Source of the DNA: Myxococcota bacterium
GTDB taxonomy: Bacteria > Myxococcota_A > Polyangia > Polyangiales > Sandaracinaceae
DNA: 64,000 nucleotides
NCBI GenBank assembly: GCA_036149055.1
Contig: JAYZQJ010000143.1
Location: 24,046-88,045, forward strand
Direction of reading: 5' to 3'
The notes beneath the pieces were generated by a model. That model was not told where the DNA came from and ran no database searches. It saw only the letters and a program-made list of their open reading frames with translations. Both the position numbers and the translations under genes were made by a program. Below, in pieces: positions 2,217 to 21,280 of the stretch; position 1 is the stretch's first letter; the number at the start of each line of letters is the position of its first letter.

Positions 2217-3472
2217 CCGAAGCCCGCGCGGCGGTCGACCGGCTCTATCGTGAAGAGCACGGCCGGATCGTCGCGCCGCTCATCCGCCTCCTCGGCGACT
2301 TCGATCGCGCCGAGGAGGTGGTCCAGGAGGCCTTCGAGGCGGCGCTGACCCAGTGGCCGTCCGAGGGCCTCCCGGACGAGCCGCGCGCGTGGGTGCTCCG
2401 CGCGGCGCGGAACAAGGCGATCGATCGCATCCGGCGCGGCCGCACGTTCCGGGACAAGCAGGCCGAGCTGAAGGCGGTGGCCGACGTCGAGCAGGCGTTC
2501 GCGCCGTCGGCCGAGGAGCTGCTCGAGGCCGGGCCGCGGGACGACATGCTGCGGCTCGTCTTCACCTGCTGTCACCCGGCGTTCGGTGCAGACGCGCAGA
2601 TCGCGCTGACGCTGCGCACCATCTGCGGCCTCACCACGCCGGAGATCGCGCGGGCGTTCCTGGTCGACGAGAAGGCGATGGCCCAGCGGCTGGTGCGCGC
2701 CAAGAAGAAGATCCGCGCGGCCGGCATCCCCTACCGCGTGCCCGCGCCCGAGGATCTCCCGGATCGCATCGACGCGGCGCTCGCGACGCTCTACCTCGTG
2801 TTCAACGAGGGCTACGCCGCCACCGCCGGCGACGCGCTCGTGCGCCAGGATCTCTGCCGCGAGGCGATCCGGCTGGCGGAGCTGGTGAGCGCGCTCCTGC
2901 CGAACGAGCCCGGGCCGAAGGGGCTGCTCGCGCTGATGCTGCTCCACGACGCGCGCCGTCACGCCCGGGTCGACGCGGAGGGTGATCTGGTGCTGCTCGA
3001 GGCGCAGGACCGGGCGCGCTGGGACCACGAACAGATCGCGCGGGCGCTGCCGCTCGTCGACGCCGCGCTCCGGGAGCGGCCGCCGAGGGGCTACGCGATC
3101 CAGGCCGCGATCGCCGCGCTCCACGCCCAGGCGCCGCGGCCCGAGGACACCGACTGGCGTCAGATCGCGGGGCTGTATCACGTGCTGCTCCGGCTCGAGC
3201 CGTCGCCGGTGGTGGAGCTGAACCGCGCGGTGGCGATCGCGATGCACGGCGACGTGGAGGAGGGGCTGCGGCTGCTCGACGCGCTCGCCGCGCGCGGCAC
3301 CCTCGCCCGCTATCACCTGCTGCCGGCCGCCCGCGGCGACCTGCTGCGGCGGCTCGGGCGCACGGGTCAGGCCCGCGCCGCCTACGAAGAGGCGCTCTCG
3401 CTGGTGAGCAACGACGTCGAGCGGCGGTTTTTGGAGCGACGGCTCGAGGCGCTTCAGCGCGCGCAGACCTGA
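2207..3472 (+). CDS. ECF sigma factor with C-terminal TPR-like extension (ECF42/DUF6596 type)
   Basis: AEEVVQEAF, ARNKAIDRIRR, LRLVFTCCHPA, YLVFNEGY and LALMLLHDARR motifs; adjacent to the DGPF gene; GTG start at 2207 inferred. Confidence 0.9.
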   Translation: MGLTEARAAVDRLYREEHGRIVAPLIRLLGDFDRAEEVVQEAFEAALTQWPSEGLPDEPRAWVLRAARNKAIDRIRRGRTFRDKQAELKAVADVEQAFAPSAEELLEAGPRDDMLRLVFTCCHPAFGADAQIALTLRTICGLTTPEIARAFLVDEKAMAQRLVRAKKKIRAAGIPYRVPAPEDLPDRIDAALATLYLVFNEGYAATAGDALVRQDLCREAIRLAELVSALLPNEPGPKGLLALMLLHDARRHARVDAEGDLVLLEAQDRARWDHEQIARALPLVDAALRERPPRGYAIQAAIAALHAQAPRPEDTDWRQIAGLYHVLLRLEPSPVVELNRAVAIAMHGDVEEGLRLLDALAARGTLARYHLLPAARGDLLRRLGRTGQARAAYEEALSLVSNDVERRFLERRLEALQRAQT

Positions 3473-4686
3473 CGGAACACGGTGATCCGCGCCGAGCCGC
3501 TCGCGCTGTGGCCCACGATCACGTCGCCCTGCCCGTCGGCGTCGACGTCCGCGAGGGCCAGCGCGGTCGGCTCGCCGACGGTCAGGCTCGCGCGGGTCGA
3601 GAGGCCGCCGTCCTCGGCATTCCAGAGCTCCACCCAGCCGCGATCCTGGCTCGCCGCCGCGAGCTCGAGCTCCGGATCCGGATCGACGTTCCCGAGCCGC
3701 AGCGCCACGAACGGGCGCGCGGCGGCCGACGCGATCTCCACCCACCCGGTGGCGTCGTAGCCGAACACCCGCAGGGACGATCCGTCGGAGACGACGATCT
3801 CGTCGCCCGAGCGCTCCGGGAAGAGATCGCCGACCTCGACCGCGGTGATGACGGGCGCGTCGACCACCAGCCCCGGTTGCAGCGTCGGCTCGTCGGTCGG
3901 GTCGAACACGTGCACCAGGACCCCGACGCCCACCCCGACGAGGGCGACGAAGCGACGGCCGTCGGGGTAGCGACCGAACCCCGCCGAGTCGCCGATCGGC
4001 GGGAACGTGCGGGTGCTCGTGAGCGAGCGATCGGGGGCGGTGTACGCCAGGTTGCCCTCTCCGGCGATCACCACCTCGGGCAGCCCGGCCCCGTCGAGCT
4101 CGCCCGCGAAGGCCACGCGAGGGCGTGCGAGGCCGCCGAAGGTCGCGTTGGGGGACGCGGACCAGCGCATCGTCGAGACGTTGCCCCGGAGGTACTGGAT
4201 CCGGTCCATCGCCGGGTCGGGGGAGAGGACGTCCAGGGTGCCGTCTCCGTCCCAGTCGACGAGGGTCGAGACGGTGTTCGGCACCGTGCCCGCCAACGCC
4301 TCCGCCGCCTCGGCGCTCAGCCCGCTGCGGTCGCACCCCGTCACGTCGACCCGGAGGAACGCCACGCCGGGGCCGCTGCTCCCGCGGAGGCTGGCGACGA
4401 TGTCGCCGTAGCCGTCGCCGTTCAGGTCCTCGACCTGCACCGCGCTCACGCCTTCGCCGCCGACCACGAAGGGGTTGCTCTGCCACCCGGCGCCCCGGCA
4501 GCCGCAGACCCCGGCGTCGGCCGGGCCGGCGTCTCCCGCGTCGGGCTCCTCGCCGGCGTCGACGGCCGCGTCCACCGCGCCGTCCCGCGGCGGCAGCCCA
4601 CCGTCGGGCGCGCCCCGCCGGAGCCGGTCGAGGTCCAGCGAGCACGAGGCGCTCAACGCGCAGAGCGTGAGCACGAGCGCCCTCAT
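3454..4686 (-). CDS. Lipoprotein with FG-GAP/VCBS-like repeats
   Basis: MRALVLTLCALSASC signal; DLNGDGYGDIV, DWDGDGTLDVL and DVDADGQGDVI repeats; ATGA overlap with the upstream gene. Confidence 0.82.
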   Translation of the reverse strand: MRALVLTLCALSASCSLDLDRLRRGAPDGGLPPRDGAVDAAVDAGEEPDAGDAGPADAGVCGCRGAGWQSNPFVVGGEGVSAVQVEDLNGDGYGDIVASLRGSSGPGVAFLRVDVTGCDRSGLSAEAAEALAGTVPNTVSTLVDWDGDGTLDVLSPDPAMDRIQYLRGNVSTMRWSASPNATFGGLARPRVAFAGELDGAGLPEVVIAGEGNLAYTAPDRSLTSTRTFPPIGDSAGFGRYPDGRRFVALVGVGVGVLVHVFDPTDEPTLQPGLVVDAPVITAVEVGDLFPERSGDEIVVSDGSSLRVFGYDATGWVEIASAAARPFVALRLGNVDPDPELELAAASQDRGWVELWNAEDGGLSTRASLTVGEPTALALADVDADGQGDVIVGHSASGSARITVFRQVCAR

Positions 4687-5384
4687 CGGAACCGCCCCTC
4701 GAGCGCGATCGAGCCGGGCCCGACGGAGACGCTCACCGACTCGGTCGGCGCGTCCCGCGGGGCCTCGACCACGAAGAGCACCACCGTCGCCGCGGCGAGC
4801 GCGCCGGTCACGATCCACATCGCGGTGGTGGCGTCGATCCGCGCCTGGACGTCCGACGCCGCGAGCTCGCCCTCGGTGCAGCCGCGCGCGTAGCAGCTCG
4901 CCTCGAGCTCCGCGTAGGCGTCGTTCGCGAGCGCCCAGGAGAGGCCGATCGCGCCCGCCGAGGCCGCGGTCGCGCCCAGGCCCACCCAGGACCAGAGCCA
5001 GCCGCCCTCGCGCGCCGGCGCGCTCGGATCGGGCGCCGCTTCGGCCGCGCGCGCCTCGATCAGCTGGAGCCGTCGCCGCGCCTCGGGGGCGGAGCGATCG
5101 CCGGGGAGCGCCTCCACGAACGCGCGGTAGGCCTCGGCCGCCTCGTCGTCGCGCCCCAGCCGCTCGGCGGCGGAGCCGATGTTGAAGAGGAGCAGAGCTC
5201 GCCCGCTCAGCGCGTAGGCGCGGCGGAAGTGCGCGAGCGCCTCCTCGTAGGCGTTGGCAGAGAACGCGTCTCGCCCGGCCTCGAACTCCGCCCGCGCCTC
5301 GGCGTCGTCGGACGTCTGCGCGCTCGCGATGGAGGGAGCCAGCAGCAGCGCGACCAGGAGCCAAGTCACACGAAAGCTCGGCAT
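4683..5384 (-). CDS. Secreted/membrane TPR protein (myxobacterial type)
   Basis: Signal peptide MPSFRVTWLLVALLLAPSIASAQ, TPR helices (LLFNIGSAAERLG), two hydrophobic segments, C-terminal VGPGSIALEGRF. Confidence 0.8.
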   Translation of the reverse strand: MPSFRVTWLLVALLLAPSIASAQTSDDAEARAEFEAGRDAFSANAYEEALAHFRRAYALSGRALLLFNIGSAAERLGRDDEAAEAYRAFVEALPGDRSAPEARRRLQLIEARAAEAAPDPSAPAREGGWLWSWVGLGATAASAGAIGLSWALANDAYAELEASCYARGCTEGELAASDVQARIDATTAMWIVTGALAAATVVLFVVEAPRDAPTESVSVSVGPGSIALEGRFR

Positions 5385-5398
5385 GGGTCCCGAGGATA

Positions 5399-6379
5399 CT
5401 ATCGGTCGAGGAGCGCGCGCACCGCGGCGATGGCCGCCCGATCGCGCTCGGCCCAGTCGCCGCGGATCACGACGTAGGGGCGCCCGCGCGCCTCGAGCGC
5501 GTCCCGGCAGCGCGCGAAGAACGCCCGGCGATCCTCTGGCCGGTAGCGGTGCACGTCGTCGACCCAGGGCACGTCCACGTCGCAGAGGAGCGTCAGGTCG
5601 TAGGCGGCGCGATCCGCCTCCTCGCAGATCCAGGCCGGGCAGTCGTCGAAGAGCGTCTCGGACCAGATCCGGGTGGTGAGCAGATCGCTGTCGCAGAAGA
5701 GGACCCGGTTCGCGCGCCGGGCGAGCGCCTGCTCCGAGGCGCGCTGCCCCCTCGCGATGCGCGGGATGTCCTCGTAGGCGAGCGCGCCCTCCTGCTCGGC
5801 GATGAGGAGCTGCGCGTACTCGGGCACCGCGACCGTGTCGAACGCCTCGGCCAGGGTGCGAGCGAGGGTGCTCTTGCCGGTGGACTCGGGGCCGAACAAG
5901 CACACGCGCTGGACGAAGTACGGACGCACGCACTCGGGGAGGAAGCGCCAGTGGCCGAGGGGATCCTCCCGGACCGCGGTGCCGCTGACCGGGAGCACCG
6001 ATCGCGCGCGGTCCACCGGCACGAAGGAGGCGCCCAGCACCTGGGCGAGGCGGTGGCCGTAGCTCTCCGACGCGAAGACGTGGTCGAGCGGCCCCTCGGG
6101 CAGCACCCGGCGCAGCGCCGCCTCCCAGATCGCCCAGAACTCCGGGTGCTCGCTCGGGTCCTGCGGCAGCACCTCGTCGAGGTGCACGACGTGGCAGTCG
6201 GGGAAGAGCTCCCGCATCCAGCCGTAGCGGAGGGCGCCGTCGATCGGCTCGTGCGGCATCGTGCCCACGACCACGGTGAGCCGGTCCACGTAGCGGCGCG
6301 CGAACTCGACCAGGTAGACGTGCCCGAGGTGCGGCGGCATGAACTTGCCGAGCACCATGCCCGTGGTCGGTCGCGTCAT
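5399..6379 (-). CDS. NadR-like bifunctional nucleotidyltransferase (HxGH) plus P-loop nucleoside kinase, lacking the HTH domain
   Basis: GKFMPPHLGH motif, VSGTAVR, Walker A GPESTGKS, VPEYA and FCDSD; ATG at 6379 overlaps the NRPS stop. Confidence 0.88.
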   Translation of the reverse strand: MTRPTTGMVLGKFMPPHLGHVYLVEFARRYVDRLTVVVGTMPHEPIDGALRYGWMRELFPDCHVVHLDEVLPQDPSEHPEFWAIWEAALRRVLPEGPLDHVFASESYGHRLAQVLGASFVPVDRARSVLPVSGTAVREDPLGHWRFLPECVRPYFVQRVCLFGPESTGKSTLARTLAEAFDTVAVPEYAQLLIAEQEGALAYEDIPRIARGQRASEQALARRANRVLFCDSDLLTTRIWSETLFDDCPAWICEEADRAAYDLTLLCDVDVPWVDDVHRYRPEDRRAFFARCRDALEARGRPYVVIRGDWAERDRAAIAAVRALLDR

Positions 6380-9057
6380 GAGGCCTCGAGCATACGCCGG
6401 ACGTAGCGGCGGAGGAGCGCCGGATCGGGCGAGGGCGCGACGATCCCGGCGGCCTCGGCCCGGCGGCGATCGAAGCGTGCGCCGGTGGCCTGAAAGAGAT
6501 CCATCGCGCGGCGCTCGTCGCGCTCGCCCAGCGCCCGCGAGAGGGCCAGCCGGGTGGGGGCGTCGATCCGATCGGTCCGCGCGATCGCCTCGCGCGGCGC
6601 CGGCTCGAGGCGCACGCCCTCGGCGCGCATCGCCTCGACGAGGGCCGCCAGCGACGTCGGCCGCGCGGCGCAGAGGTGAAAGGTCTCGAGCGCGCGATCG
6701 GTCCGGGCGCGCAGGACGAGCGTCGCCATCGCCTCGGCCGCGTGGTCGACCGGGGTGACGTCGAAGCCGAGCGCCGGGGCCGCGTCCTCGGGGTAGACGC
6801 CGAGCCGCGCGAGCCCGCGCACGAGCATGCTCAGCCAGTCGTGCGCTGGCGCCGCGGCGGTGGCGCGATCTCCGGTGAGCAGCCCGAGCCGATGCAGGGT
6901 GATCGGGATCGCGCCCTCGGCGCGCCGCACCAGGAGCTCGGCCGCGACCTTGGACTGCGCGTAGCCCCCGTACACCTCGCGGGTCGCGGAGAGATCGCCG
7001 TCTTCGCGCGCCGGCCGCTCGGCGCGATCGGTCGAGACGAAGACCGACAGGGTGGAGGCGAGGTGGAACGACGCGCCGGCCTCGAGCGCGAGCCGGAGGG
7101 CCTCCGCCGTCCCGTCGAGGTTGGTGGCCCGCAGCGCGGCGAAGGAGCGGGCGAGGCTCACGGTCGCCGCGCAGTGCACGACCACGTCCACCGCGTCGGT
7201 CAGCGCGGCCCAGGTCTCCGGGGCGAGCCCGAGCCCGGGCAGGGACACGTCGCCGCGGACCACGTCGGGGAGATCGGTGTCGCGCCGCACCAGGCTCACC
7301 ACCCGGAGCCCGCGCGCGCGGAGCGCGTCGTGGAGGCGGCGCCCGAGGAAGCCGGTCGCGCCGGTGAGGAGCGCGACGCGGGGAGGGCGCGCGGGGCGGG
7401 GCGCGCGCGCGAGGGCGGCCTCGAGCGCGGCCGACGGCCGGGCGACCGCGCGCAGGGCGGCGAGCGTCATCGTCGACGTCTCCTCCGCGTCGAGCGCCCG
7501 GGCGAGGCCGGCCACCGTGGGGTGCGCTTCGACGAGCTCGGGCCCTACGGCGAGCCCGGCCGCGGCCGCGCGGGCGACCAGATCGACGAGCGCGAACGAG
7601 TCGCCGCCCCGCGCGAAGAAGTCGTCGTCGCGCGCCACCGGGACGCCGAGCGCGCCCTCGAACATCGCCGCCAGCTGCGCCTCGAGCGGCGTCTCGAGCT
7701 CGTCTCCGCGGGCCGTGGTGATCGGCGCGTCGGCCAGGGCGGCGAGGTCGACCTTGCCGGTGGCGCCTCGCGGCAGGGCGTCGACGCGCTCGAGCCACGC
7801 CGGGACCATCCAGCCCGGCAGGCGCTCGGCCAGGTGAGCGCGCAGCGCGTCGGCGGACGCCTCGCCTTCGAAGAACCCGACCAGAGCGTCCCGGGCGCCG
7901 AGCCGGCGCTTCTGCACCGCGGCCGCCCGCACCTCGGGGTGCTCCGTCAGCGCGGCCTCGATCTCCTCGGGCGCCACCAGCCGACCCCGCAGCTTGAGCT
8001 GTCGATCGATCCGCCCGAGGAAGACGTACTCGCCGTCTGGCAGGCGCTCGACGCGATCGCCGGTGCGGTAGACGCGGGCGCCCTCGAGCGAGGTGAAGCG
8101 CTCGTGCGGCCCGTCCCCGAGGTAGCCGCGCGCGACCTGCGGGCCGCCGATCCAGAGCTCGCCTTCGACGAGGTGATAGTCGACGCCGGGGAGCGGGCGA
8201 CCGATGCGCGCGCCGTGCGGACGGTCCGGATCGCAGACCCCGAGGCTCGTGCAGACGGTGGCCTCGGTAGGGCCGTACACGTTGACGAGGCGCACGCGCG
8301 CGGCCCAGCGGCGCACGGCGTCCTCGGCGCAGACCTCGCCGCCGATGACCACCGCGCGGAGCGACGCCGGGGCGCGGTCGGGGTCGAGGTGAGGCAGCAG
8401 CGAGGGAGGCAGATCCACGTGTGTGATCGCGTGGCGGTGGAGCGCCGAGAGCACCGCCTCGGGCGTCCGGGCGCGCGAGACGAAGAGCGTCGCCCCGGCG
8501 GTGAGCGCGGTGAAGACGTCCGAGACCGAGGCGTCGAAGCTCGGCGACAGCACCCAGAGCGCGCGATCTCCCGGCCGCAGGTCGAACGCCTCCACCTGCG
8601 CCGCGAGCATCGAGGGCAGCCCCGCGTGCGTCACCACCACCCCCTTCGGCGCGCCCGACGAGCCCGAGGTGAAGATCACATACGCCTCGCGGATGGAGTC
8701 TTCTCGTCCGATCCCCTGCGTTGGGAAACAAAGAAACTCCGTCCCCGTGTCCGTGATCCGGGGGCGGGCGAGGGCGCGCATGGCGGCGCGGCGCTTCTCG
8801 GGGAGCCCCGGGTCGAGGGGCATCCAGGCGGCGCCGCAGCGCCAGGCGGCGATCGCAGAGGTGATCCAGTCGATCGACTTGTCGAGCGCGAGGGCGACGC
8901 GCTCGCCCGGGCCGGCCCCGGCCTCGCGGAGCTGCGTCGCCCGCTCGCCGGTCGCGGCCCAGAGCGCGGCGTAGGTGAGCGCCCGGTCTCCGTCCACGAC
9001 CGCGAGGGCGTCGGGGCGCGCGGCCGCCTGGGCCTCGATGCGGGCGAGCACGCTCAT
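6376..9057 (-). CDS. Stand-alone NRPS-like enzyme, A-PCP-R (adenylation, carrier, thioester reductase)
   Basis: YVIFTSGSSGAPKG (A3), NVYGPTE (A5), YRTGD (A7), GRIDRQLKLRG (A8), GKVD (A10); PCP FFARGGDS; SDR TGATGFLG and YAQSK; no C domain. Confidence 0.92.
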   Translation of the reverse strand: MSVLARIEAQAAARPDALAVVDGDRALTYAALWAATGERATQLREAGAGPGERVALALDKSIDWITSAIAAWRCGAAWMPLDPGLPEKRRAAMRALARPRITDTGTEFLCFPTQGIGREDSIREAYVIFTSGSSGAPKGVVVTHAGLPSMLAAQVEAFDLRPGDRALWVLSPSFDASVSDVFTALTAGATLFVSRARTPEAVLSALHRHAITHVDLPPSLLPHLDPDRAPASLRAVVIGGEVCAEDAVRRWAARVRLVNVYGPTEATVCTSLGVCDPDRPHGARIGRPLPGVDYHLVEGELWIGGPQVARGYLGDGPHERFTSLEGARVYRTGDRVERLPDGEYVFLGRIDRQLKLRGRLVAPEEIEAALTEHPEVRAAAVQKRRLGARDALVGFFEGEASADALRAHLAERLPGWMVPAWLERVDALPRGATGKVDLAALADAPITTARGDELETPLEAQLAAMFEGALGVPVARDDDFFARGGDSFALVDLVARAAAAGLAVGPELVEAHPTVAGLARALDAEETSTMTLAALRAVARPSAALEAALARAPRPARPPRVALLTGATGFLGRRLHDALRARGLRVVSLVRRDTDLPDVVRGDVSLPGLGLAPETWAALTDAVDVVVHCAATVSLARSFAALRATNLDGTAEALRLALEAGASFHLASTLSVFVSTDRAERPAREDGDLSATREVYGGYAQSKVAAELLVRRAEGAIPITLHRLGLLTGDRATAAAPAHDWLSMLVRGLARLGVYPEDAAPALGFDVTPVDHAAEAMATLVLRARTDRALETFHLCAARPTSLAALVEAMRAEGVRLEPAPREAIARTDRIDAPTRLALSRALGERDERRAMDLFQATGARFDRRRAEAAGIVAPSPDPALLRRYVRRMLEAS

Positions 9058-9884
9058 GGGGTGCGCACGTAGTCGACGAGCGCGGAGCCGCGCGAGCGGT
9101 TGTCCACGTTGGGGGCGCCGCGGCCGGCCGCGTGGTCGTCGAGCCAGACCACCCGGAAGTCGAGGCTGTAGCGGGTGGTCCCGCGGCTCTGCGGCCGGGT
9201 CGCGTGGAACTGCGCGCCGCTGAAGCGGAGGTTGTCGCCGCGGCGACACGCGAAGCCGACCGCGGGGCCCGGATCCGGGTCGCCGATCACCCCGGGGTAG
9301 CGCGCCTTCAGGCCGTGGTCGCGGTGCTGCCAGCCGATCTTGAGGTCCCAGCCCTCGCGCACCCAGTCGCCGTACTCGAAGATCTCGGACTCGTTCGGCA
9401 CCGCCGCCGCGAAGCGCTCCGGGTAGAAGACGAAGGTCTCCTCCTCCGGCAGGTCGTGGAGCGGGATCCACCAGGTGATCACCGCCTGCGAGTGCGCGTA
9501 CCAGGTGTCGCGATGCGCCAGGTAGACCGCCTTGGCCCGCGGGTTCTCGTGCCCCCGGTGCGACACGACCCGCAGCCGGATCGGATCGAAGGCGGCGCGC
9601 GCCGGATCCACCCCGCACGCCGCGATCACCTCCCGGACGATCTCGTGCCAGCGCGGTTCGAGGAACAGCGTCCGGCGCACCCGGCCGATCCGCGCGAAGA
9701 GCGTCTCCGGGGAGAGCGCCTCGTGCGCCCTCCGCACGTCGTCCACTCCGAGCTCCGAGGCGAGCAGCGCCTCCGCCTCGGCGGCCGCGCGGCGCGAGGC
9801 CTCGGTGGGCTCGGTCAGGAGCACCGCGCCGTCGTAGAGCGCGGCCCGCGCCGCGTCCCAGCCGGGATCCTCGCGCCGGATCAC
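9054..9884 (-). CDS. Putative 2-oxoglutarate/Fe(II)-dependent oxygenase (PhyH/StrG-like)
   Basis: HxD motif (AHRDTWY), WWIPL, distal His (QFHAT), RYSLDFR; GTG at 9884 overlaps the methyltransferase stop. Confidence 0.65.
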   Translation of the reverse strand: MIRREDPGWDAARAALYDGAVLLTEPTEASRRAAAEAEALLASELGVDDVRRAHEALSPETLFARIGRVRRTLFLEPRWHEIVREVIAACGVDPARAAFDPIRLRVVSHRGHENPRAKAVYLAHRDTWYAHSQAVITWWIPLHDLPEEETFVFYPERFAAAVPNESEIFEYGDWVREGWDLKIGWQHRDHGLKARYPGVIGDPDPGPAVGFACRRGDNLRFSGAQFHATRPQSRGTTRYSLDFRVVWLDDHAAGRGAPNVDNRSRGSALVDYVRTP

Positions 9885-10627
9885 GCCGGCCTCCGCGCGA
9901 GCGCGATGCACCGCGGGCTGTCCACGCCGAGCGGCTCGCCGTCGGTGCTGCCGAGCAGCGTGACCTCCTCGAAGCCGGCCTCGCGCAGCAGCTTCACGAT
10001 CGTGTGCGGCATCAGCAGCCGCACCGCGCTCTCGTGCCGCACCCGCTCGCCGTCGGGCAGGAAGTAGGTCCACGTCTTGCGCATCATGCCGGCGCCGAGG
10101 TCGAGCCGGGTCTCGCGCACCAGGGTCACCTCGCCCCGTGGCGTCTCGCGTCTCGTGACGACCCCGGGCTGGAAGCCGCGGAGCACCCCGGGCAGGTTCA
10201 TCGTGTCGAGCGCGAAGCGGCCGCCCGGGCGCAGGCTCTCGAAGGCCCGCTCGAGCATGCGCGCGCTGTCGACGTCGTCGGCGGAGTAGCCGAAGCTCGT
10301 CCACCAGTTGAACGCCGCGTCGCAGGGCGGATCGGCGACGAAGGCCCGCGCGTCCCCCGCGTGGAGCGCGACCTCGAGGCCGGCCTCGCGCGCCCGGGCC
10401 CGCCCGCGCTCGACGTAGGCCGCCGCCTGATCGACCCCGACGATGTCGCAGCCCCGCGCGGCGAGCGGGATCGCCAGGCTGCCGACGCCGCAGCACTGGT
10501 CGAACACCCGCGCCCCGGCCTCGAGGTCGAGGTGCGCCATCAGGAACCCCACCTCGCGCGCGTCGTCCTCGCGCTCGAGGAGCACGTCCGCGAGCAGCTC
10601 GTCGTAGAGGCCTTCCCACCAGCTCAT
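9881..10627 (-). CDS. Class I SAM-dependent methyltransferase
   Basis: VFDQCCGVG motif I, GVD, GDAR, FNWWTSFGY, LRPGGRFAL. Confidence 0.9.
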   Translation of the reverse strand: MSWWEGLYDELLADVLLEREDDAREVGFLMAHLDLEAGARVFDQCCGVGSLAIPLAARGCDIVGVDQAAAYVERGRARAREAGLEVALHAGDARAFVADPPCDAAFNWWTSFGYSADDVDSARMLERAFESLRPGGRFALDTMNLPGVLRGFQPGVVTRRETPRGEVTLVRETRLDLGAGMMRKTWTYFLPDGERVRHESAVRLLMPHTIVKLLREAGFEEVTLLGSTDGEPLGVDSPRCIALARRPA

Positions 10628-12438
10628 CGTGCGTCTCCCAACCCGAAGCGGCGCTGCAGGAGCGTCGCGGTCAGCGCCAGCATCAGCGCCGGCTCGTGGG
10701 CCGCGCGCTCCGAGGTCGGCCGCGCCGCCTGCGCCTCGAGGGCCGCGCGCACGCGACCGCGGTCGAGGAACGACGGCAGCGCGTCCCACATCGCCTCGTC
10801 TTCGATCAGCGGCGGCGCGAGGAACGGGTGCTTGCGGCGCGTCACCACCTCCTCGGGGAGCCGCCCGCGCATCACCGCCCGCAGCGCGTGCTTCTCGACG
10901 CCGTCGCGGATCTTGTCCTCGAGCGGGAGCCGGAGCGCGACCTCGAACACGCGATGATCCAGAAACGGCGTGCGCCCCTCGATCGACGCCGCCATCTCGG
11001 TCCCGTCCCCCAGCGTGCGCAGGATGTAGCCGGCGAGCGCGAGCTGGGTCCACGTCCAGGCGGCGCGCTCCGGCGGCGCGTCCGTGGGCTCACCCGCGTC
11101 GAGCTCCTCCGCCAGCCCGGCCCAGGTCTCGCCCGGCTCGATCGGGAGCTCCGGCGACAGCAGCGCGCGGAAGCGCCCGGCCAGCAGCGCCTTCGCCTCC
11201 AGCCAGCTCGGGACGAAGCCCAGCGCGGCGCGCAGCTCCGGCAGCGCGGGCGCCGGCGCGTCCGGCATCATCACGCCCCGGTAGCGCGCGCTCTCTCGCT
11301 CGTGCCGCGCGCTCGCCTCCGCGTCCCCGGCCAGCGCGTCGCGCACCAAGTGGGGGTAGCCGAGCAGCGCCTCGTCGGCGCCCTCTCCGGTGAGCACTGC
11401 CTTCGCGCCCGCCTCCCGGATCGCGCGGGCGAGCAGCAGCTTCGCCGGGAGCTGCCCGTTGATCGCGAGCCCCTCCGAGAACCACACGGCGTCCGGCAGC
11501 GCCTCGCGCATGGCCTCCGGGCGCGCGTCCACCACCGTGTGCGTCGCCCCCAGCCGCTCGGCCACCGCCCGGGCGTGCGCCGACTCGTCCCAGCCCTCGC
11601 CGTCGAAGCGCACGCCGAAGGTGCGCGGCGCCTCGCCCCCCGCGAGCGCGACCACCGACGAGGAGTCGAGCCCCCCGCTCAGCGCGAACGCGACCGGCAC
11701 CGTCGCCCGCGCGCGCAGCCGCGCGGCCTCGGTCAGGGCCTCCGCGAGCTCCTCCGGCGTGCTCGGGGCGCGGTCGCGATCCCGCGGGTCCCAGTAGCGC
11801 CGCAGCGTCACGCGCTCGCCCTCCACCAGCAGCAGGTGCGCCGGCGGCACCGCGCGCACCCCGTGGAACATCGTGCGCGACGGGGGCAAGTACTGATGCG
11901 TCGCCACGTGCGCGAGCGACCGGGCGTCCCAGCGCGCCGGCACGCCCATCGCGAACAGCGCCTTGGCCTCCGACGCGACGAGCACCCGCCCCTCGTGCCG
12001 GGCCCACACCAGCGGCTTCACCCCGAAGCGATCCCGCGCCGCGACCAGCCGGCGCCGTCCGGCGTCCCAGAGCGCCATCGCCAGCTCACCCCGCAGCCGC
12101 TCGACGAACGCGTCGCCGTGGACGCGGTAGAGGTGCAGCGCCAGCTCCGAGTCGCTCGAGGTCCGGAAGCGGTGTCCGCGCGCCTCCAGCCCCGCGCGCG
12201 CCTCCTCGTGGCCGTAGAGCTCTCCGTTCACGCTCACCGCGAGGTCGCCGTCCACGATCGGCTGGGCCGCGTCGTCGCCGCCCACGATCGCGAGCCGCGC
12301 GTGCGCCAGCCCCGCGCCGCCCGCCGGGTCGAGCCAGACCGCGTCGCCGTCGGGACCCCGGTGACGCAGCGCCGCGACGCCGGCGCGCAGCCGCCGCGCG
12401 TCGAGGCCCGGGCCGACCACCGCGACCACCCCGCACAT
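10624..12438 (-). CDS. asnB: Asparagine synthase (glutamine-hydrolysing) family amidotransferase
   Basis: N-terminal MCG (Ntn Cys), HRGPD, NGELY, ARDRFGVKPL, SGGLDSS, TGEGADE, EGRTPFLDH. Confidence 0.93.
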   Translation of the reverse strand: MCGVVAVVGPGLDARRLRAGVAALRHRGPDGDAVWLDPAGGAGLAHARLAIVGGDDAAQPIVDGDLAVSVNGELYGHEEARAGLEARGHRFRTSSDSELALHLYRVHGDAFVERLRGELAMALWDAGRRRLVAARDRFGVKPLVWARHEGRVLVASEAKALFAMGVPARWDARSLAHVATHQYLPPSRTMFHGVRAVPPAHLLLVEGERVTLRRYWDPRDRDRAPSTPEELAEALTEAARLRARATVPVAFALSGGLDSSSVVALAGGEAPRTFGVRFDGEGWDESAHARAVAERLGATHTVVDARPEAMREALPDAVWFSEGLAINGQLPAKLLLARAIREAGAKAVLTGEGADEALLGYPHLVRDALAGDAEASARHERESARYRGVMMPDAPAPALPELRAALGFVPSWLEAKALLAGRFRALLSPELPIEPGETWAGLAEELDAGEPTDAPPERAAWTWTQLALAGYILRTLGDGTEMAASIEGRTPFLDHRVFEVALRLPLEDKIRDGVEKHALRAVMRGRLPEEVVTRRKHPFLAPPLIEDEAMWDALPSFLDRGRVRAALEAQAARPTSERAAHEPALMLALTATLLQRRFGLGDAR

Positions 12439-13319
12439 CAGCCCGCGCCCTCCAGCGCCCGCGCCCAGATCTCCTCGGCCGCGCTCGCCGGGGTCAGGAA
12501 CGTCTTCACGTCCTCGCGAGAGCCGAACGCGCGGTCGTACTCGGCGAGCGGCAGCACCGGCCCGAGCAGGTCGTCGACCAGCGACGGACGCTCCTCGAGC
12601 CGCGCGATCGCGTCGTCCATCGGCGCGTAGCGTGCCGTCGCGATCCGGATCTCCCGCTGCACCGCCGCCGCGACGTCGAACGGCACCGGCGCGTACGGGC
12701 GGCTCTTCAACACCAGCGTGCCTCCCGGCCGGAGCGCCGCGATCGCGCGCGTCAGCGTCTCGGCGGTGGCCCGGGTCTCGATCACGAAGTCGAGGTCCGC
12801 GTCCCCCTCGTCGAGCGCCCCGACGTCCGAGAAGCCGGCCTGCGCGAGCACCCGCCGGGTCAGGGTCGCGATCCGCCCGCCGCCGAGGATCCGGCCGCGC
12901 CCGTTCGCCGGCAGCCCGATCCCGAGCACCGCCATCGACGCGGCCATCGGCTCCGCGTACGCGGCGTGCCGCATCGAGAGCCCTCGGGCCCGATGCAGCG
13001 CGCGGCCGGGCACGACGAGCTCCTCCGCGAACGCGCCGTCGCGATCGACCCCGAGGAACACGTCGCGCTCGAGGGCCGGCATCACGCAGACCGCCTCGCC
13101 CGGCGACCACGCCTCCGCCCGGCTCTCCCGGACCACGCCGCAGACCTCGTGCCCGAGCACCCGCGGCTCGTCGACCGGGATGCGACCCTCGGCGACGTAC
13201 ACGTCGGTGCGGCAGACCCCGACGCACACGACCTCGAGCCGGACGTCGCCCGCGCCCACCGTCGGCCGCGCGCCCTCGCCCAGCCGCACCCCGCCCCGCT
13301 CGCGCCGCAGTCCACGCAT
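12438..13319 (-). CDS. Zinc-binding (MDR) alcohol dehydrogenase-like protein
   Basis: GVCRTD and GHE catalytic-Zn motifs, DGAFAEE, AYAEP, GGGRIA; no structural-Zn Cys cluster. Confidence 0.85.
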   Translation of the reverse strand: MRGLRRERGGVRLGEGARPTVGAGDVRLEVVCVGVCRTDVYVAEGRIPVDEPRVLGHEVCGVVRESRAEAWSPGEAVCVMPALERDVFLGVDRDGAFAEELVVPGRALHRARGLSMRHAAYAEPMAASMAVLGIGLPANGRGRILGGGRIATLTRRVLAQAGFSDVGALDEGDADLDFVIETRATAETLTRAIAALRPGGTLVLKSRPYAPVPFDVAAAVQREIRIATARYAPMDDAIARLEERPSLVDDLLGPVLPLAEYDRAFGSREDVKTFLTPASAAEEIWARALEGAG

Positions 13320-13399
13320 GGCCCTCACTTTAGTGTCTGGGCGACACAAATCAATCCCCGACTTGCGTCTCGCGCCGGGGGCCCCACGCCCCCGAGCAC

Positions 13400-14209
13400 A
13401 TGCCGCGCTACCACGGTCACCAGCTCCATGTCTCCGTCGCCGGCCCCGAAGACGGACCGGTCGCGGTCTTCATCCATTCCTCCGGCCTGAGCGGGCGGCA
13501 GTGGAACCGGTACGCCGAGGCGTTCGTGGCCGCGGGCTACCGGGTCCTGGTCCCCGACCTCATCGGGCAGGGCGAGTCCGAGCCCTGGCGCGCCGAGATG
13601 CCGTTCCACTTCCACGCCGACCTCCGCGCCATGGAGGAGCTCGTGTCGGAGGTGGCTGGCCCGGTGACCCTCGTCGGCCACTCCTACGGCGGCCTGCTGA
13701 GCCTCCAGCTCGCGGCGGCGCTACCCCCCGATCGCCTGCGCGCGCTCGTGGTCTACGAGCCGGTCACCTGGGGCGTGCTCCACGCGGAGGACGAGCGCGC
13801 GCTCGCGAGCTTCCGCGAGGACGGCTTCTTCGACGACGCGCTCGGCGGCACCGAGGAGTGGACGCGGCGCTTCGTCGACTACTGGAGCGGCGAGGGCGCC
13901 TACGACGCGCTGCACGAGGCGGCCCGCGCGCAGATGAACCGGAGCGCGCGCAAGACGTTCGAGGAGGTCCGCAGCCTCTGCTACGACTGGACCCCGGCGC
14001 GTCACTACGAGGGCATCGTCTGCCCCACCCTCGTGATGCACGGCACCCGCTCTCCCGCGGAGGCGCAGCGCATCTGCGCCCTCGTCGCCGCCGCCCTGCC
14101 CGCCGCGACCCTCCGCCCGATCGAAGGCGCCGGTCACCTCGGCGCCGTCCAGCTGGCCTCCACCCTCGCCCCTCTCGTCCTCGAGTGGGCGCAGCAGACA
14201 GACCTGTGA
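13400..14209 (+). CDS. Alpha/beta fold hydrolase
   Basis: GHSYGG nucleophile elbow, PDLIGQGES, GAGH catalytic His. Confidence 0.9.
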   Translation: MPRYHGHQLHVSVAGPEDGPVAVFIHSSGLSGRQWNRYAEAFVAAGYRVLVPDLIGQGESEPWRAEMPFHFHADLRAMEELVSEVAGPVTLVGHSYGGLLSLQLAAALPPDRLRALVVYEPVTWGVLHAEDERALASFREDGFFDDALGGTEEWTRRFVDYWSGEGAYDALHEAARAQMNRSARKTFEEVRSLCYDWTPARHYEGIVCPTLVMHGTRSPAEAQRICALVAAALPAATLRPIEGAGHLGAVQLASTLAPLVLEWAQQTDL

Positions 14210-14231: not shown

Positions 14232-15156
14232 CTCTCGCGAAGCCGCCAAGCCGCAAAGGGAGGTGCGGGCGGCGGGGTCGTGACTCGCCGGGTCGGGGCT
14301 GACTGCGGCGGTCTCGTCGACAGCTTTTTTCTCTCGCAGAGGCGCAGAGTCGCAGAGGGGCGGCGGGGTGGCGGCTCGCCGGGTCGGGGTGGGCGGGGAC
14401 GGGTTTGGCGACAGCCTTTTTGTCTCACGCAAAGGCGCAAAGACGCAAAGAGCGAGCGGGGCGGCGAGATGGTGGTTCGCCGGGGCTCGGCGGGTCGTCG
14501 CGGTCTCGCCGACAGCTTTTTGTTTCTCGCAGAGGCGCAGAGTCGCAGAGGGGCGGCGGGGTGGCGGCTCGCCGGGTCGGGGTGGGCTGGCACGGCTTTG
14601 GCGACAGCTTTTTTTGTCTCACGCAAAGACGCAAAGACGCAAAGAGCGAGCGGGGCGGCGAGATGGTGGTCCGCCGGGGCTCGGTGGGTCGTCGCGGTCT
14701 CGTCGACTGCTTTTTGTCTCTCGCAGAGGCGCAGAGTCGCAGAGGGGCGGCGGGGTGGCGGCTCGCCGGGTCGGGGCGGGCTGGCACGGCTTCGGCGACA
14801 GTTTTTTGTCTCACGCAGAGGCGCAGAGTCGCAGAGGGGCGGCGGGATGGCGGCTCGCCTGCCAGTACCCAGCCGCCGGGCGCGGTGGCGTTCCAGGTGG
14901 CTGGCGGCGGTCACGTCACGACCCGGCACGACCTGGCCACCTCCCATCCCGCGGCCCCCAACGCCTCTGCGCCTCTGCGTCTCTGCGAGAAATTAATTGT
15001 CTCCCAGTCGTCAACGATCGGAGGAGCGGCACAATCGTGCCGGCGGTGTGGGCGCTGGCCGTCGGGGACCCGGCGGCCGGGCGCCACGGCGTGCCAGGCG
15101 GCTGGGAGCGCTGAGGCGCTCAGCGGGGACTTGGCGGCTTTGCGCCTTGGCGAGAG
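14232..15156. repeat. REP/BIME-like array 1 of triple-octamer units (CGCAGAGN)x3 and (CGCAAAGN)x3
   Basis: Forward triads at about 14332, 14425, 14526, 14619, 14720 and 14811 (~193-nt two-unit period with repeated linkers); inverted triad at 14965-14990; degenerate inverted terminal copies at 14232-14259 and 15130-15156. Confidence 0.88.
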
Positions 15157-17756: not shown

Positions 17757-20249
17757 ATGAACGACGAGACCCGGAGCGACGGACTGCCGGCCTCCCTCAC
17801 CCGCGAGATCGCGCGGGCGCGGGCGCGCCTCAACCGCCACGTGCTGCTCGACGCGACGCTCTGTGGCCTCGCGGCCGGGCTCGCCGCCTTCGCCCCCGCC
17901 GCGCTCGCGCTCTCGATCGCGGGCCTGCCCCTCCACTGGGGCGCCGCGGCGATGGGCCTCGCCCTGGTGGGCGTCATGGCCTTCGAGCTCCGCCGCCGCT
18001 GGCACGACGACCTCGACGCGGCGATGGTGCTCGACCGGGTGCTCGACGCGAAGGACCGCTTCGCGACCGCGCTGCAGCTCTCGGGCGCCGAGGAGGTGCC
18101 GAAGCTCCACCGCCTCCAGATTCGCTCGGCCGAGACCTTCCTCGCCGACGCGGGCGAGGTGCCGGCCCCGCCGCGCCCGCCCTTCCGCGTCGGACGCTAC
18201 GCCGCGGCCGCGGTGATCGCGCTCGGCGTCTCCGTCCCCCTCGCGGTGGCCTGGCCGGAGCTGGTGGCCTGGCTCGGCGGTGACGACGCCGCGCTCGAGC
18301 CCGAGGACCCGCGCACGCCGGAGGAGATCGCGGCCGCCGCCGAGGCCCTCCGCCAGCGCCTCGCCGAGAACCCCGACCGCCGGCTCGACGCAGAGATCAA
18401 CGCGCTCGAGCACGAGCTCGCCGAGCAGCGCGCCCGGGCGATGGACCAGCGCGCCGACGCCATCCGGGAGGCGGCCGAGATCCTGGAGCGCGCCGCGGGC
18501 ATCGATCCCGAGGCCGACGGAGGCGAGGGCGCCGAGCCGGGCGAAGAGCGGGCGAGCGCCGAAGATCGTCCGCTCCCCACCTCCGTGGACCAGGAGCCTC
18601 CCGAGACCGCGTCACGCCGGCTGATGGACGCCTGGGACGAGGCGCGCGAGGCGATGGAGCGCTGGCGGGAGGCGGCGCGGCGGCCCGACGCCGATCCGTT
18701 CCAGACCGCGCAGCTCCAGCACGAGGCCCAGCGCCGTCAGATGGAGGCGCTCCAGCTCGCGCGCCAGGAGCGCAGCTGGGAGCAGGCCCAGACCGAGGAG
18801 CAGCGCGAGGCGCAGCGCCGCCAGCGAGAGCAGCGCGCGGCCGAGGCCCAGACCCCCGCCGACCGGATGAGCGAGTCGGTGGATCGGCTCGACCGCGCGC
18901 TCGCCGCCCTGCACCGCGACGACGACTCGCCCGACGTGCCTCCCCCGGCGGTGAGCGAGGCCCTGCGCGACGCCAACGAGCGCCTCGCCGAGCACACCCC
19001 CCGCACCGCCGAGCAGCTCGACCGCGCCGCCGGCGCCCGCGACCAGGGCGACGGCGAGCAGATGGATCGCGCCCTCGAGCAGGCCCGCGAGGCGCTCCGC
19101 CGCGAGGCCGGCCAGCAGGCGCAGCAGCTGAGCGACGCCCGCCGCCGCCTCGATCAGCTGCACGACGAGGTCGCCCGCCGCGCCGCCGAGCGCGCGGGGC
19201 AGCAGGGCAGCGGCGAGCAGCTCGCGCAGGCGGGGCAGCAGGGGCTGCAGGAGGGCCAGAACGGGCAGCAGGGTCAGAGCGGGCAGCAGGGGCAGAGCGG
19301 GCAGCAAGGGCAGAACGGGCAGCAAGGCCAGAACGGTCAGGGCCAGCAGGGCCAGGACGGGCAGCAGGGTCAGAATGGCCAGGGCCAGAACGGGCAGCAG
19401 GGTCAGCAGGGGCAGAACGGTCAGGGCCAGAACGGGCAGCAGGGTCAGGGGCAGAACGGGCAGGGCCAGAACGGGCAGCAGGGTCAGGGACAAGGCCAGG
19501 GGCAGGGTCAGGGACAAGGCCAGGGCCAGGGCCAGGGCCAAGGCCAGGGGCAGGGGCAGGGCCAGGGTCAGGGACAAGGCCAGGGTCAGGGACAGGGTCA
19601 GGGACAGGGCCAGGGCCAGGGGCAGGGACAGGGCCAGGGTCAGGGTCAGGGTCAGGGACAAGGCCAAGGGCAGGGGCAAGGCGACGGGCAAGGGCACGGG
19701 CACGGGCAAGGGCACGGGAGCTCGTCGCAGACTTCGTCTGGCTCGGGGCAAGGACGAGGTCAGGGGCAGGGGCAGGGGCAGACCGGGTGGGGGCAGCAGG
19801 GGAATGGGCAGGGCGGCGGTCAGGGACAGAACGGGCAGGGCGGCGGTCAGGGACAGGGAGGGCAGGCGCAGGGCGGTGAGTCCCAGCGCGGCAGCCAGTC
19901 CTGGGGCTCCGGGTCGGGCGGGGATCCGCTCGGGCAGGGCGCGGCCACCGGGGACTCGAACCACGACGTGAACACCGACCCGGGCGCCGACCCGGGCCAG
20001 CAGGCGAGCACCAGCCAGGACGCCCAGGAGGGCGGCTTCATCCCCGGCGGCGGGCGGGGAGGCGGGCAGAGCTCGCAGCACATGGACGCGCTGCAAGGCG
20101 GGCGCGGCGGGCCGGGCTCCGGATCGCTCGCCGGCGGTGGGCAAGACGGCCCCCGCGTGGGCGGCGACAGCACGATCCCCGCCTCCCTTCGCGCCTACGT
20201 GCGGCGCTACCTCGAGACGATCCGCGGTGGACAGACCGACGGCAATTGA
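17757..20249 (+). CDS. Membrane-anchored coiled-coil protein with Gly/Gln-rich low-complexity region (MoxR operon-associated)
   Basis: N-terminal hydrophobic segments, LDAKDRFATAL, coiled region, GQ/GQN repeats, C-terminal IPASLRAYVRRYL. Confidence 0.8.
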   Translation: MNDETRSDGLPASLTREIARARARLNRHVLLDATLCGLAAGLAAFAPAALALSIAGLPLHWGAAAMGLALVGVMAFELRRRWHDDLDAAMVLDRVLDAKDRFATALQLSGAEEVPKLHRLQIRSAETFLADAGEVPAPPRPPFRVGRYAAAAVIALGVSVPLAVAWPELVAWLGGDDAALEPEDPRTPEEIAAAAEALRQRLAENPDRRLDAEINALEHELAEQRARAMDQRADAIREAAEILERAAGIDPEADGGEGAEPGEERASAEDRPLPTSVDQEPPETASRRLMDAWDEAREAMERWREAARRPDADPFQTAQLQHEAQRRQMEALQLARQERSWEQAQTEEQREAQRRQREQRAAEAQTPADRMSESVDRLDRALAALHRDDDSPDVPPPAVSEALRDANERLAEHTPRTAEQLDRAAGARDQGDGEQMDRALEQAREALRREAGQQAQQLSDARRRLDQLHDEVARRAAERAGQQGSGEQLAQAGQQGLQEGQNGQQGQSGQQGQSGQQGQNGQQGQNGQGQQGQDGQQGQNGQGQNGQQGQQGQNGQGQNGQQGQGQNGQGQNGQQGQGQGQGQGQGQGQGQGQGQGQGQGQGQGQGQGQGQGQGQGQGQGQGQGQGQGQGQGQGQGQGQGQGDGQGHGHGQGHGSSSQTSSGSGQGRGQGQGQGQTGWGQQGNGQGGGQGQNGQGGGQGQGGQAQGGESQRGSQSWGSGSGGDPLGQGAATGDSNHDVNTDPGADPGQQASTSQDAQEGGFIPGGGRGGGQSSQHMDALQGGRGGPGSGSLAGGGQDGPRVGGDSTIPASLRAYVRRYLETIRGGQTDGN
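19482..19682 (+). repeat. Coding (GGN CAR)n repeat giving ~33 consecutive Gly-Gln dipeptides
   Basis: Hexamer repeat with synonymous variation (GGT/GGA/GGC/GGG; CAG/CAA). Confidence 0.9.
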
Positions 20250-20259
20250 GAGAGAGACG

Positions 20260-21279
20260 ATGGGCGAAACGAATCAGGTACACGTGCTCAACCCGTTCGA
20301 CAGCGTTCGCGCGCTCTGCCGCGACATGACGGCGGAGATCGGCAAGCGGGTGGTCGGCCAGCAGGACGCCATCGACTGCCTCACGGCGGGCTTGCTCCTC
20401 GGCGGCCACGTCCTCATGGAGGGCGTGCCCGGCGTCGGCAAGACGCTGCTGGCGCGCACCCTCGCGGACGTCGTGGACCTGAGCTTCGCCCGCGTGCAGT
20501 TCACGCCCGACCTCATGCCGGCCGACGTGCTCGGCACCCACATCGTCTCGGTCGGGTCCGACGGTCGGCCGACGATGACGCTCCAGCAGGGCCCGCTCTT
20601 CGGCAACGTCATCCTCGCCGACGAGATCAACCGCGCCTCGCCCAAGACGCAGTCCGCGCTCCTCGAGGCCATGCAGGAGAAGCAGATCTCCCTCGGCACG
20701 GAGACCTACCCGCTGCCGCGCCCGTTCTTCGTCGTCGCCACTCAGAACCCGATCGACAACGAGGGCACCTACCCGCTCCCGGAGGCGCAGCTCGATCGTT
20801 TCCTGATGAAGCTGATGATCGGCTTCCCCTCCGAGGACGACGTGCTCGCGATCGTCGATCGCACCGCCGACGGGATCGACGCCACGGTCGGCAGCGTGGC
20901 CACGAGCGAGCAGCTGATCAGCGCCGGCAAGACCATCCGGCAGATGCCCACCGCCGAGACCATCAGCCGCTACGCGGTGCGCCTGGTGCTCGCGACCCAC
21001 CCCGAGCACGAGTACGCGCCCGCCTGCGTGCGCCGCTACGTGCGGGCCGGCGCCTCACCCCGCGCGGCCCAGAGCCTCCTCGCGGTCGCGAAGTTCTTCG
21101 CCGTGCTCGACGGCCGGCTCAACGCGAGCGCCGACGACGTGCGCCGCGCCGCCTACCCCTGCCTCCGCCACCGCATCCTCCTCAACTTCGACGCCATCGC
21201 CGACGACGCGACCACCGACACGCTGATCCGTCAGCTGCTGATGGATCTGGACGCCCCGAAGAACCCGAAGCGCAAGTAA
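20260..21279 (+). CDS. moxR: MoxR family AAA+ ATPase
   Basis: GVPGVGKT, RVQFTPDLMPAD, LADEINRASPKTQSALLEAMQE, ATQNPIDNEGTYPLPEAQLDRF. Confidence 0.95.
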   Translation: MGETNQVHVLNPFDSVRALCRDMTAEIGKRVVGQQDAIDCLTAGLLLGGHVLMEGVPGVGKTLLARTLADVVDLSFARVQFTPDLMPADVLGTHIVSVGSDGRPTMTLQQGPLFGNVILADEINRASPKTQSALLEAMQEKQISLGTETYPLPRPFFVVATQNPIDNEGTYPLPEAQLDRFLMKLMIGFPSEDDVLAIVDRTADGIDATVGSVATSEQLISAGKTIRQMPTAETISRYAVRLVLATHPEHEYAPACVRRYVRAGASPRAAQSLLAVAKFFAVLDGRLNASADDVRRAAYPCLRHRILLNFDAIADDATTDTLIRQLLMDLDAPKNPKRK

Positions 21280-21280
21280 C

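Follow-up and report, generated by a model that had tools for sequence, protein, structure and literature searches.

A conserved six-gene operon joins a peptide-synthetase-like reductase to a NadR-family enzyme behind a predicted NrtR operator

The Myxococcota bacterium of assembly GCA_036149055.1 (Polyangiales; Sandaracinaceae) contains an operon of six genes which joins a nonribosomal peptide synthetase (NRPS)-like reductase to an enzyme of the NadR family. The operon lies in the window, the 64,000-nucleotide stretch that was analysed (positions 24,046 to 88,045 of contig JAYZQJ010000143.1, here C143); the genome, here G000, is 9.9 Mb long and 96% complete. All six genes are on the minus strand. 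The first encodes a Zn-dependent medium-chain dehydrogenase/reductase (MDR), referred to here as the dehydrogenase or ADH (12438-13319, 293 aa, PF08240). It is followed by an AsnB-type glutamine-dependent amidotransferase (10624-12438, 604 aa, TIGR01536), a class I S-adenosylmethionine (SAM) methyltransferase (MTase; 9881-10627, 248 aa, nearest solved relative 9RI2) and a PhyH-like Fe(II)/2-oxoglutarate (2OG) oxygenase (9054-9884, 276 aa, GTG start), the last assigned from its motifs and modelled fold. Next is an NRPS-like reductase with adenylation (A), PP-binding (T) and NAD_binding_4 reductase (R) domains, or A-T-R (6376-9057, 893 aa). The last gene encodes a NadR-family adenylyltransferase/kinase without the helix-turn-helix (HTH) domain (5399-6379, 326 aa), which aligns with solved NadR enzymes. 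The whole unit spans less than 8 kb. Its first junction, at 12438, is a 1-bp overlap (TGATG); the other four are 4-bp overlaps (ATGA or GTGA). The original prediction of six overlapping minus-strand genes is borne out by the open reading frames, by a G+C content at third codon positions of 0.94-0.98 (coding-type) and by these junction sequences, and its family assignments hold under domain profiles and models. As it also stated, the unit has no condensation (C) domain, phosphopantetheinyl transferase (PPTase) or exporter; three PPTase-domain matches are present elsewhere in G000.

The six genes are one conserved unit. Loci were collected with the oxygenase as bait (80 of 124 fetched from genomes and 80 of 179 from metagenomes), and the near-identical strain L090 was left out of the locus counts. 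All six genes are present at 59 of the 159 loci, and at 34 of the 42 in which the oxygenase has at least 9 kb of sequence to either side. Eight gene orders are found among the complete loci. Three pairs are maintained: among core genes, ADH and AsnB are adjacent in 59/59 complete loci, A-T-R and NadR in 58/59, and MTase and oxygenase in 57/59. Complete loci carry the labels of ten phyla (Myxococcota, Verrucomicrobiota, Actinomycetota, Pseudomonadota, Planctomycetota, Armatimonadota, Cyanobacteriota, Bacillota, Lentisphaerota and Acidobacteriota), which should be read as about ten, as most of these loci come from metagenome-assembled genomes (MAGs) and single phylum labels may be mis-binned. 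The Actinomycetota carriers are three Nocardia isolates; close oxygenase relatives bear the names of myxobacteria. One unpublished locus, L011 (genome G062), is counted among the 59 complete loci, in the NadA count and in the 63-region operator count given below. The co-occurrence in other genomes to which the original prediction had tied a shared pathway was thus checked; the gene set recurs, and the shared pathway is not contradicted.

In an unbiased phylum draw, the dehydrogenase subfamily is found in 14 of 351 genomes, separated from other dehydrogenases by a score gap (at least 235 versus at most 206 bits). Thirteen of these genomes have an oxygenase-family match (three of them a divergent one only) and 12 have a NadR match. 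A variant of the unit, here called Acetobacteraceae-type, occurs in six loci from MAGs (L055, L058, L059, L062, L068 and L072); the MTase-oxygenase pair faces genes for A, R and NadR. These are preceded by NadM-Nudix and NAMPT genes in five of the six loci, and no NadA match was found in the carriers of the variant. No transporter recurs among cassette neighbours. An aspartate kinase gene lies directly before the MTase or oxygenase gene in three loci (L018:271-1596, L029:7827-9155 and L086:8196-9449); this may be chance, or a hint of an aspartate-family precursor. Oxygenases and dehydrogenases of the cassette type are absent from IMG/VR, in which three distant oxygenases only were found; phage records gave no oxygenase match, and plasmids gave distant oxygenases only. 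Phage-borne reconstitution of nicotinamide adenine dinucleotide (NAD) was rejected as a role on these results. The PADLOC 2023 anti-phage models, run on 7 proteins, gave one generic methyltransferase match only.

The cassette NadR aligns over its full length with the solved enzymes 8x7f, 1lw7 and 9x6f. It keeps the HLGH motif of the nucleotidyltransferase (residues 17-20) and the Walker A motif of the P-loop kinase (163-170), and it scores under the curated equivalog cut-offs (289 against 341 bits for TIGR01526; 142 against 201 for PRK08099). Entry 9x6f was taken as the phage enzyme Bas30_86, the numbering of which fits at a constant offset of 6. Of the residues named in catalysis by Bas30_86, K10, F110, S112, E230 and D275 are kept and K168 is Arg; S37, E80, P84, G89, D115, K163 and R167 are changed. 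The same altered loop for nicotinamide mononucleotide (NMN) is present in close NadR relatives linked to the riboside importer PnuC. These relatives were found by a NadR-only search of the 351 genomes, independent of the oxygenase, which gave 35 matches. Among the best 30 of these 35 loci, the 19 closest outside G000 include nine beside cassette genes, seven directly behind PnuC, three with neither and none with both. The closest PnuC-linked enzymes are 57-61% identical to the cassette NadR. The seven share 93 of 103 cassette-conserved positions; five distant PnuC-linked enzymes share 70. Four of the seven PnuC-linked genomes have no oxygenase match and in three the only match is divergent and lies away from cassette genes, which suggests that the five upstream enzymes occupy the place of the importer. 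No PnuC was found, either in G000 or at any of the 94 cassette loci examined. Genome-wide exclusion of PnuC by the cassette is not shown (PnuC in 2/60 carriers versus 14/201 background genomes), because PnuC is rare anyway. The PnuC-linked NadRs nested within those of the cassette in a quick tree of 110 rows, a result withdrawn after the approximately unbiased (AU) test: with 37 of these rows, the tree which keeps all 12 PnuC-linked enzymes together is 26 log units better (p-AU 0.80).

A predicted NrtR operator, a 21-bp palindrome with a GT-N7-AC core, lies at 13330-13350. It ends 10 bp before the dehydrogenase ATG, in an 80-bp gap shared with a divergent hydrolase gene. It was recognised by a matrix scan and by its near-twin: the site ranks third in the genome under a matrix made from 13 sites of other loci, and the near-twin is directly before the pncB-nrtR operon of G000. 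There are two nrtR genes in G000, both away from the cassette. The same-genus genome G001 keeps the operator before its cassette and before pncB. According to the available text of PMC2330246, NrtR sites have a 21-bp palindromic consensus with a GT-N7-AC core and ADP-ribose lifts repression by other NrtRs; the regulons in its Table 1 serve mostly NAD synthesis, salvage and ADP-ribose use. The cassette is thus predicted to be repressed by an ADP-ribose-sensing NrtR. The earlier statement that the unit has no regulator is true of the genes within it and fails for the DNA in front of them.

Sites of this type recur in other genomes. After eleven near-duplicate loci were removed, a first scan with the half-site of the pncB operator found sites in 11 of 63 upstream regions, against 0.1 in shuffled sequence. 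A two-class scan, which adds a second GT-N7-AC class defined after the data were seen and drops L011, found sites before 15 of 62 related operons, where 50 shuffles gave a mean of 0.1 (maximum 1); among other tiles it marked 4 of 4115, two of which precede nrtR genes. A site or an nrtR gene is within reach of 22 of the 62 operons. The second operator class precedes the cassette in L010, L038, L045, L061, L112, L117, L220 and L226; three of these loci, L038, L061 and L117, have a divergent nrtR gene opposite. NrtR is found in 46/60 carrier genomes versus 56/201 of the phylum draw, a comparison in which kin are not independent and the carriers span more phyla. The commonest recurring neighbour of the cassette is a Nudix-domain protein, mostly NrtR; others are PncA, PncB, NADAR, Macro, ADP-ribosylglycohydrolase, CinA, NAMPT and NadM-Nudix. 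A sigma-70 promoter scan of 13150-13500 found none, and RNA run X1 gave short contigs over cassette and flanks alike, which is uninformative on transcription. The best NrtR-type site in G000 is elsewhere, in the region C224:653-3837, where it precedes genes which by sequence reading are kinase-like, vWA-like and adenylosuccinate-synthetase-like; this operon is likely a further member of the ADP-ribose regulon. Together, the predicted operator, the neighbouring NAD genes and the relatedness of NadR to pnuC-nadR salvage enzymes tie the unit to NAD metabolism.

The dehydrogenase differs from solved MDR enzymes in its Rossmann domain. Residues C36, H57, E58 and E123 (the Zn ligands), R149 and R207 are invariant in 48 homologues. 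The family has a gap of 27-32 residues after the second Rossmann strand; PF08240 is matched and PF00107 falls below its cut-off. In a structural model (predicted local distance difference test, pLDDT, 96.8), helix C and strand C of the Rossmann domain are missing, and the remainder superposes on threonine dehydrogenase 2dq4 (Z 30.9; root-mean-square deviation, rmsd, 2.4 over 279 residues). The second position of the glycine motif is Gly in 48/69 and Asn in 14/69 dehydrogenases, followed by an invariant Arg. The deleted segment is presumably the one that binds adenosine in solved relatives. The full Rossmann set, which comprises an adenosine-binding acidic residue besides helix C and strand C, is thus not complete in the family. 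With the adenosine half of the fold gone, sequence and model suggest that the enzyme may take a mononucleotide, such as NMN or nicotinic acid mononucleotide (NaMN), as cofactor or substrate. The same truncated fold and invariant arginines are seen in two dehydrogenases which are not part of a cassette (L240:10300-11139 and L241:8839-9771). AsnB exceeds its TIGR01536 cut-off (367.6 versus 267.1 bits); Cys2 is present in 73/75 sequences, and the SGGxDS loop and GEGADE motif are kept.

The MTase matches 9RI2 at E 2e-33 with a 52-sequence profile. This structure comes from the NmbA study; NmbA is an N-methyltransferase that acts on the cysteinyl amine of bacillithiol (available text of PMC12719100). 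By sequence the MTase is likely an amine N-methyltransferase; a function as an aminocarboxypropyl transferase was judged less likely because the best solved relative is of this type. In the oxygenase, H124-x-D126, H227 and R238-x-S240 are invariant in 43 homologues. Its model (pLDDT 93.8) is a double-stranded beta-helix with a PhyH-like fold; the best fold match is PtlH (Z 15.2, rmsd 3.9, 231 aligned residues, 13% identity). It scores 19.1 for PF05721, under the cut-off of 22, and it has no sequence match in the PDB and no characterised close relative. An identity as a Kdo hydroxylase was set aside: Pfam gives no support, and sister families occur in varied contexts. Members of the wider oxygenase family, at 29-40% identity, are found outside the cassette (L007, L217-L219, L222-L224 and L237-L239), and some adjoin sugar-nucleotide genes or other methyltransferases.

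The A-T-R reductase has one conserved amino-acid pocket, D-A-S-D-(V/I)-G-V-(V/I)-C-K, across 82 homologues. D235, D278, G301, C331 and the A10 Lys are present in 82/82, as are Y699 and K703 of the R domain; the carrier serine is Ser487. The best NCBIfam match is MxcG (TIGR01746), at 421 bits, far below its cut-off. Asp235 and Asp278 presumably suit an alpha-amino acid whose side chain is basic or an amide, as judged from specificity codes; a search of the open-access literature for the pocket code gave no relevant match. We take A-T-R to be the one enzyme of the six that is able to create a new C1 aldehyde or alcohol. A route to choline or CDP-choline by reduction of glycine betaine was ruled out by Asp235, which indicates an alpha-amino acid, and by the NAD context.

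Carriers have normal NAD synthesis. NadA is found in 47/54 carrier genomes, NadE-like proteins in 59/60 and NadD-like proteins in 60/60, counts in which two pairs of handles share coordinates and are probably the same genomes. Retention of these enzymes rejects the cassette as a replacement of de novo synthesis and makes it an addition to the normal pathway. NadA was not found in G000 itself, though NadC, NadD and NadE are present; a same-genus genome has a divergent NadA, and the missing gene may be an assembly gap at this completeness.

The divergent alpha/beta hydrolase which the original prediction placed beside the operon exists (13400-14209, plus strand) and is not part of the unit: among loci L001-L169 it adjoins the cassette only in the 99%-identical strain L090, and it is not beside the cassette of G001. 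It could share the operator in the strain of G000. On the other side, genes for tetratricopeptide repeat (TPR) and FG-GAP lipoproteins (3454-5384) begin 14 bp past the NadR stop on the same strand; no recurrence of these was found beside other cassettes. Seven imperfect direct repeats of about 97 bp, of two alternating types and with inverted copies, lie at 14234-14900; they have the look of REP/BIME-type elements, and similar sequence is present near 22200-22900. An ordinary operon of MoxR ATPase, DUF58 and von Willebrand factor A (vWA) genes, the lead protein of which has a long Gly-Gln repeat, occupies 17757-27331.

The reading we favour, tentatively and with a probability of about 0.45, is an ADP-ribose-induced pathway in which five enzymes would make, within the cell, a carboxamide-bearing alcohol that resembles nicotinamide riboside, and NadR would turn it into a modified NAD-like dinucleotide. 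NAD breakdown would free ADP-ribose, and NrtR repression would be lifted. A-T-R would activate one conserved alpha-amino acid, the side chain of which is probably polar or basic, and release the aldehyde; the MTase would N-methylate an amine, and the neighbouring oxygenase would oxidise the methylated product. AsnB would turn a carboxylate into a nicotinamide-like carboxamide. The truncated dehydrogenase, the fixed partner of AsnB, would handle a mononucleotide or set the level of aldehyde and alcohol. NadR would then phosphorylate the primary alcohol and add adenosine monophosphate (AMP). During NAD loss the likely benefit would be an NAD stand-in or an inhibitor of NAD-degrading enzymes (NADases). 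Family profiles detect no ribosyltransferase among the six genes, so either the amino-alcohol itself would replace the riboside or existing NMN or NaMN would be decorated. An NAD-like dinucleotide is favoured because the kinase needs a primary alcohol, AsnB would provide a carboxamide and ribose attachment is missing. A narrower version, in which an amino-acid-derived riboside stand-in yields a NADase-proof, non-glycosidic dinucleotide and the dehydrogenase is a natural NMN-type oxidoreductase, is a long shot; a reduced four-carbon amino-acid chain would, by our count, have the same number of atoms as the riboside from N1 to O5'. The original prediction of a pathway for a small amino-acid-derived metabolite survives as a conserved biosynthetic unit built on an amino-acid-reducing A-T-R; the tie to NAD metabolism sets it apart from an ordinary secreted metabolite.

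Several observations weigh against the NAD-like dinucleotide. Neither a site nor an nrtR gene is within reach of 40 of the 62 operons. Two of the 14 top-scoring dehydrogenases stand alone, outside any cassette, and the 99% complete genome G130 has AsnB, MTase, oxygenase and A-T-R without a NadR match; NadR is therefore not obligatory. The Acetobacteraceae-type variant has no ADH or AsnB orthologues by the queries used, a very divergent NadR and separate A and R genes, and the carrier-protein motif was not found. Near-complete residue conservation in the close PnuC-linked NadRs fits a true riboside better than an analogue. This last point belongs to the main rival, a somewhat less probable view in which the five enzymes supply authentic nicotinamide riboside (NR) or NMN through a route of synthesis, salvage or repair that has not been described, NadR converts it to NAD, and the cassette is an in-cell substitute for PnuC. 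AsnB could then convert NaMN to NMN in the manner of an NMN synthetase, and an oxidised SAM-derived N-methyl carbon could close the ring. The functions of the Table 1 regulons (PMC2330246) agree with it, as does the alternation of cassette and PnuC as partners of NadRs with 93/103 conserved positions in common; so do the kinase residues equivalent to E230 and D275 of the phage NadR, the position of NAMPT, which forms NMN, in line with A, R and NadR in the AsnB-less variant, the likeness of the dehydrogenase to a mononucleotide binder and the lack of an exporter. It is opposed by the lack of a ribose-attaching enzyme among the six and by the NadA, NadD and NadE which carriers already have; no short path can be drawn from an amino aldehyde to a pyridine with these enzymes, and its PnuC argument is weakened by the undemonstrated exclusion and the nesting that failed the AU test.

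Alkaloid clusters that start from amino aldehydes are known to combine A-T-R with a dehydrogenase, an N-methyltransferase and an oxygenase. An ordinary NRPS-like secondary-metabolite cluster, making for example an N-methylated cyclic amine, a piperazine or an antivitamin with NadR for self-protection or cofactor supply, comes near to the original prediction and would suit the four upstream genes that G130 keeps without NadR, the stand-alone dehydrogenases of L240 and L241 and the patchy distribution (14/351 genomes). The predicted NrtR operator, the NAD-gene neighbours, a NadR that adjoins A-T-R in 58/59 complete loci and the absence of a recurring transporter make this improbable. The movement of gene pairs as blocks, and the existence of split and partial versions, would also be expected if ADH-AsnB, MTase-oxygenase and A-T-R-NadR were co-regulated but chemically separate modules which clear different by-products of NAD or ADP-ribose damage. 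Since all six are together in 34/42 wide loci across phyla, with every junction overlapping in G000, we consider separate modules very improbable.

Bacteria commonly use NAD depletion as a weapon, both in immunity and in conflict with other bacteria. To our knowledge, the known routes of NAD restoration recycle nicotinamide, its riboside or ADP-ribose. An ADP-ribose-induced operon which feeds NadR from an amino-acid reductase would, if true, be a new NAD route or the source of a new cofactor-like molecule. If the stand-in reading is true, bacteria of about ten phyla meet NAD destruction with their own NAD substitute. The dehydrogenase is a candidate natural mononucleotide-dependent enzyme, of a kind that engineers now build by hand. 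Because the unit is compact, is carried by sequenced isolates and offers a clear read-out, it can be tested directly.

Each enzyme belongs to a known family, and no known system was found in which NrtR controls a unit that combines an NRPS-like reductase with NadR. The novelty claimed in the original prediction holds for the open-access literature, where searches matched the gene combination to no described cluster; subscription journals, MIBiG and supplements were outside the search. The A-T-R reductases with an MxcG-type R domain, for which fungal amino-aldehyde clusters are the comparison case, have, like the cassette enzyme, no C domain and a set of A, T and R domains in which the catalytic residues are intact; the cassette differs by its coupling to NadR and the NAD regulon. 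The pnuC-nadR salvage III route and phage NARP3, as described in the available part of PMC13464706, share with the cassette a two-domain NadR that lacks the HTH and keeps intact HxGH and Walker A motifs, and PMC2330246 lists nadR-pnuC operons under NrtR control; the cassette has no PnuC and five biosynthetic enzymes in its place. The NrtR regulons share the 21-bp GT-N7-AC palindrome just 5' of a start codon. Table 1 of that source includes no NRPS-like, AsnB, methyltransferase or oxygenase targets, and its available text has no match for 'asparagine' or 'peptide synth'; its Tables S1-S2 could list more (PMC2330246). The altemicidin/sbz pathway also uses a 2OG oxygenase and a SAM methyltransferase to tailor an NAD-related scaffold. 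In the accessible part of its description, it relies on an SbzP-type pyridoxal phosphate (PLP) enzyme, a family absent from the six cassette genes, and it removes ADP-ribose, whereas the cassette ends in an enzyme which adds phosphate and AMP (PMC9516700). Rossmann enzymes have been engineered for NMN(H) specificity by means of a polar residue at the glycine motif that disfavours the dinucleotide; the engineered examples in the available text change the second Gly itself, whereas the cassette dehydrogenase has an Arg after it and a natural deletion of the adenosine subsite (PMC13661529).

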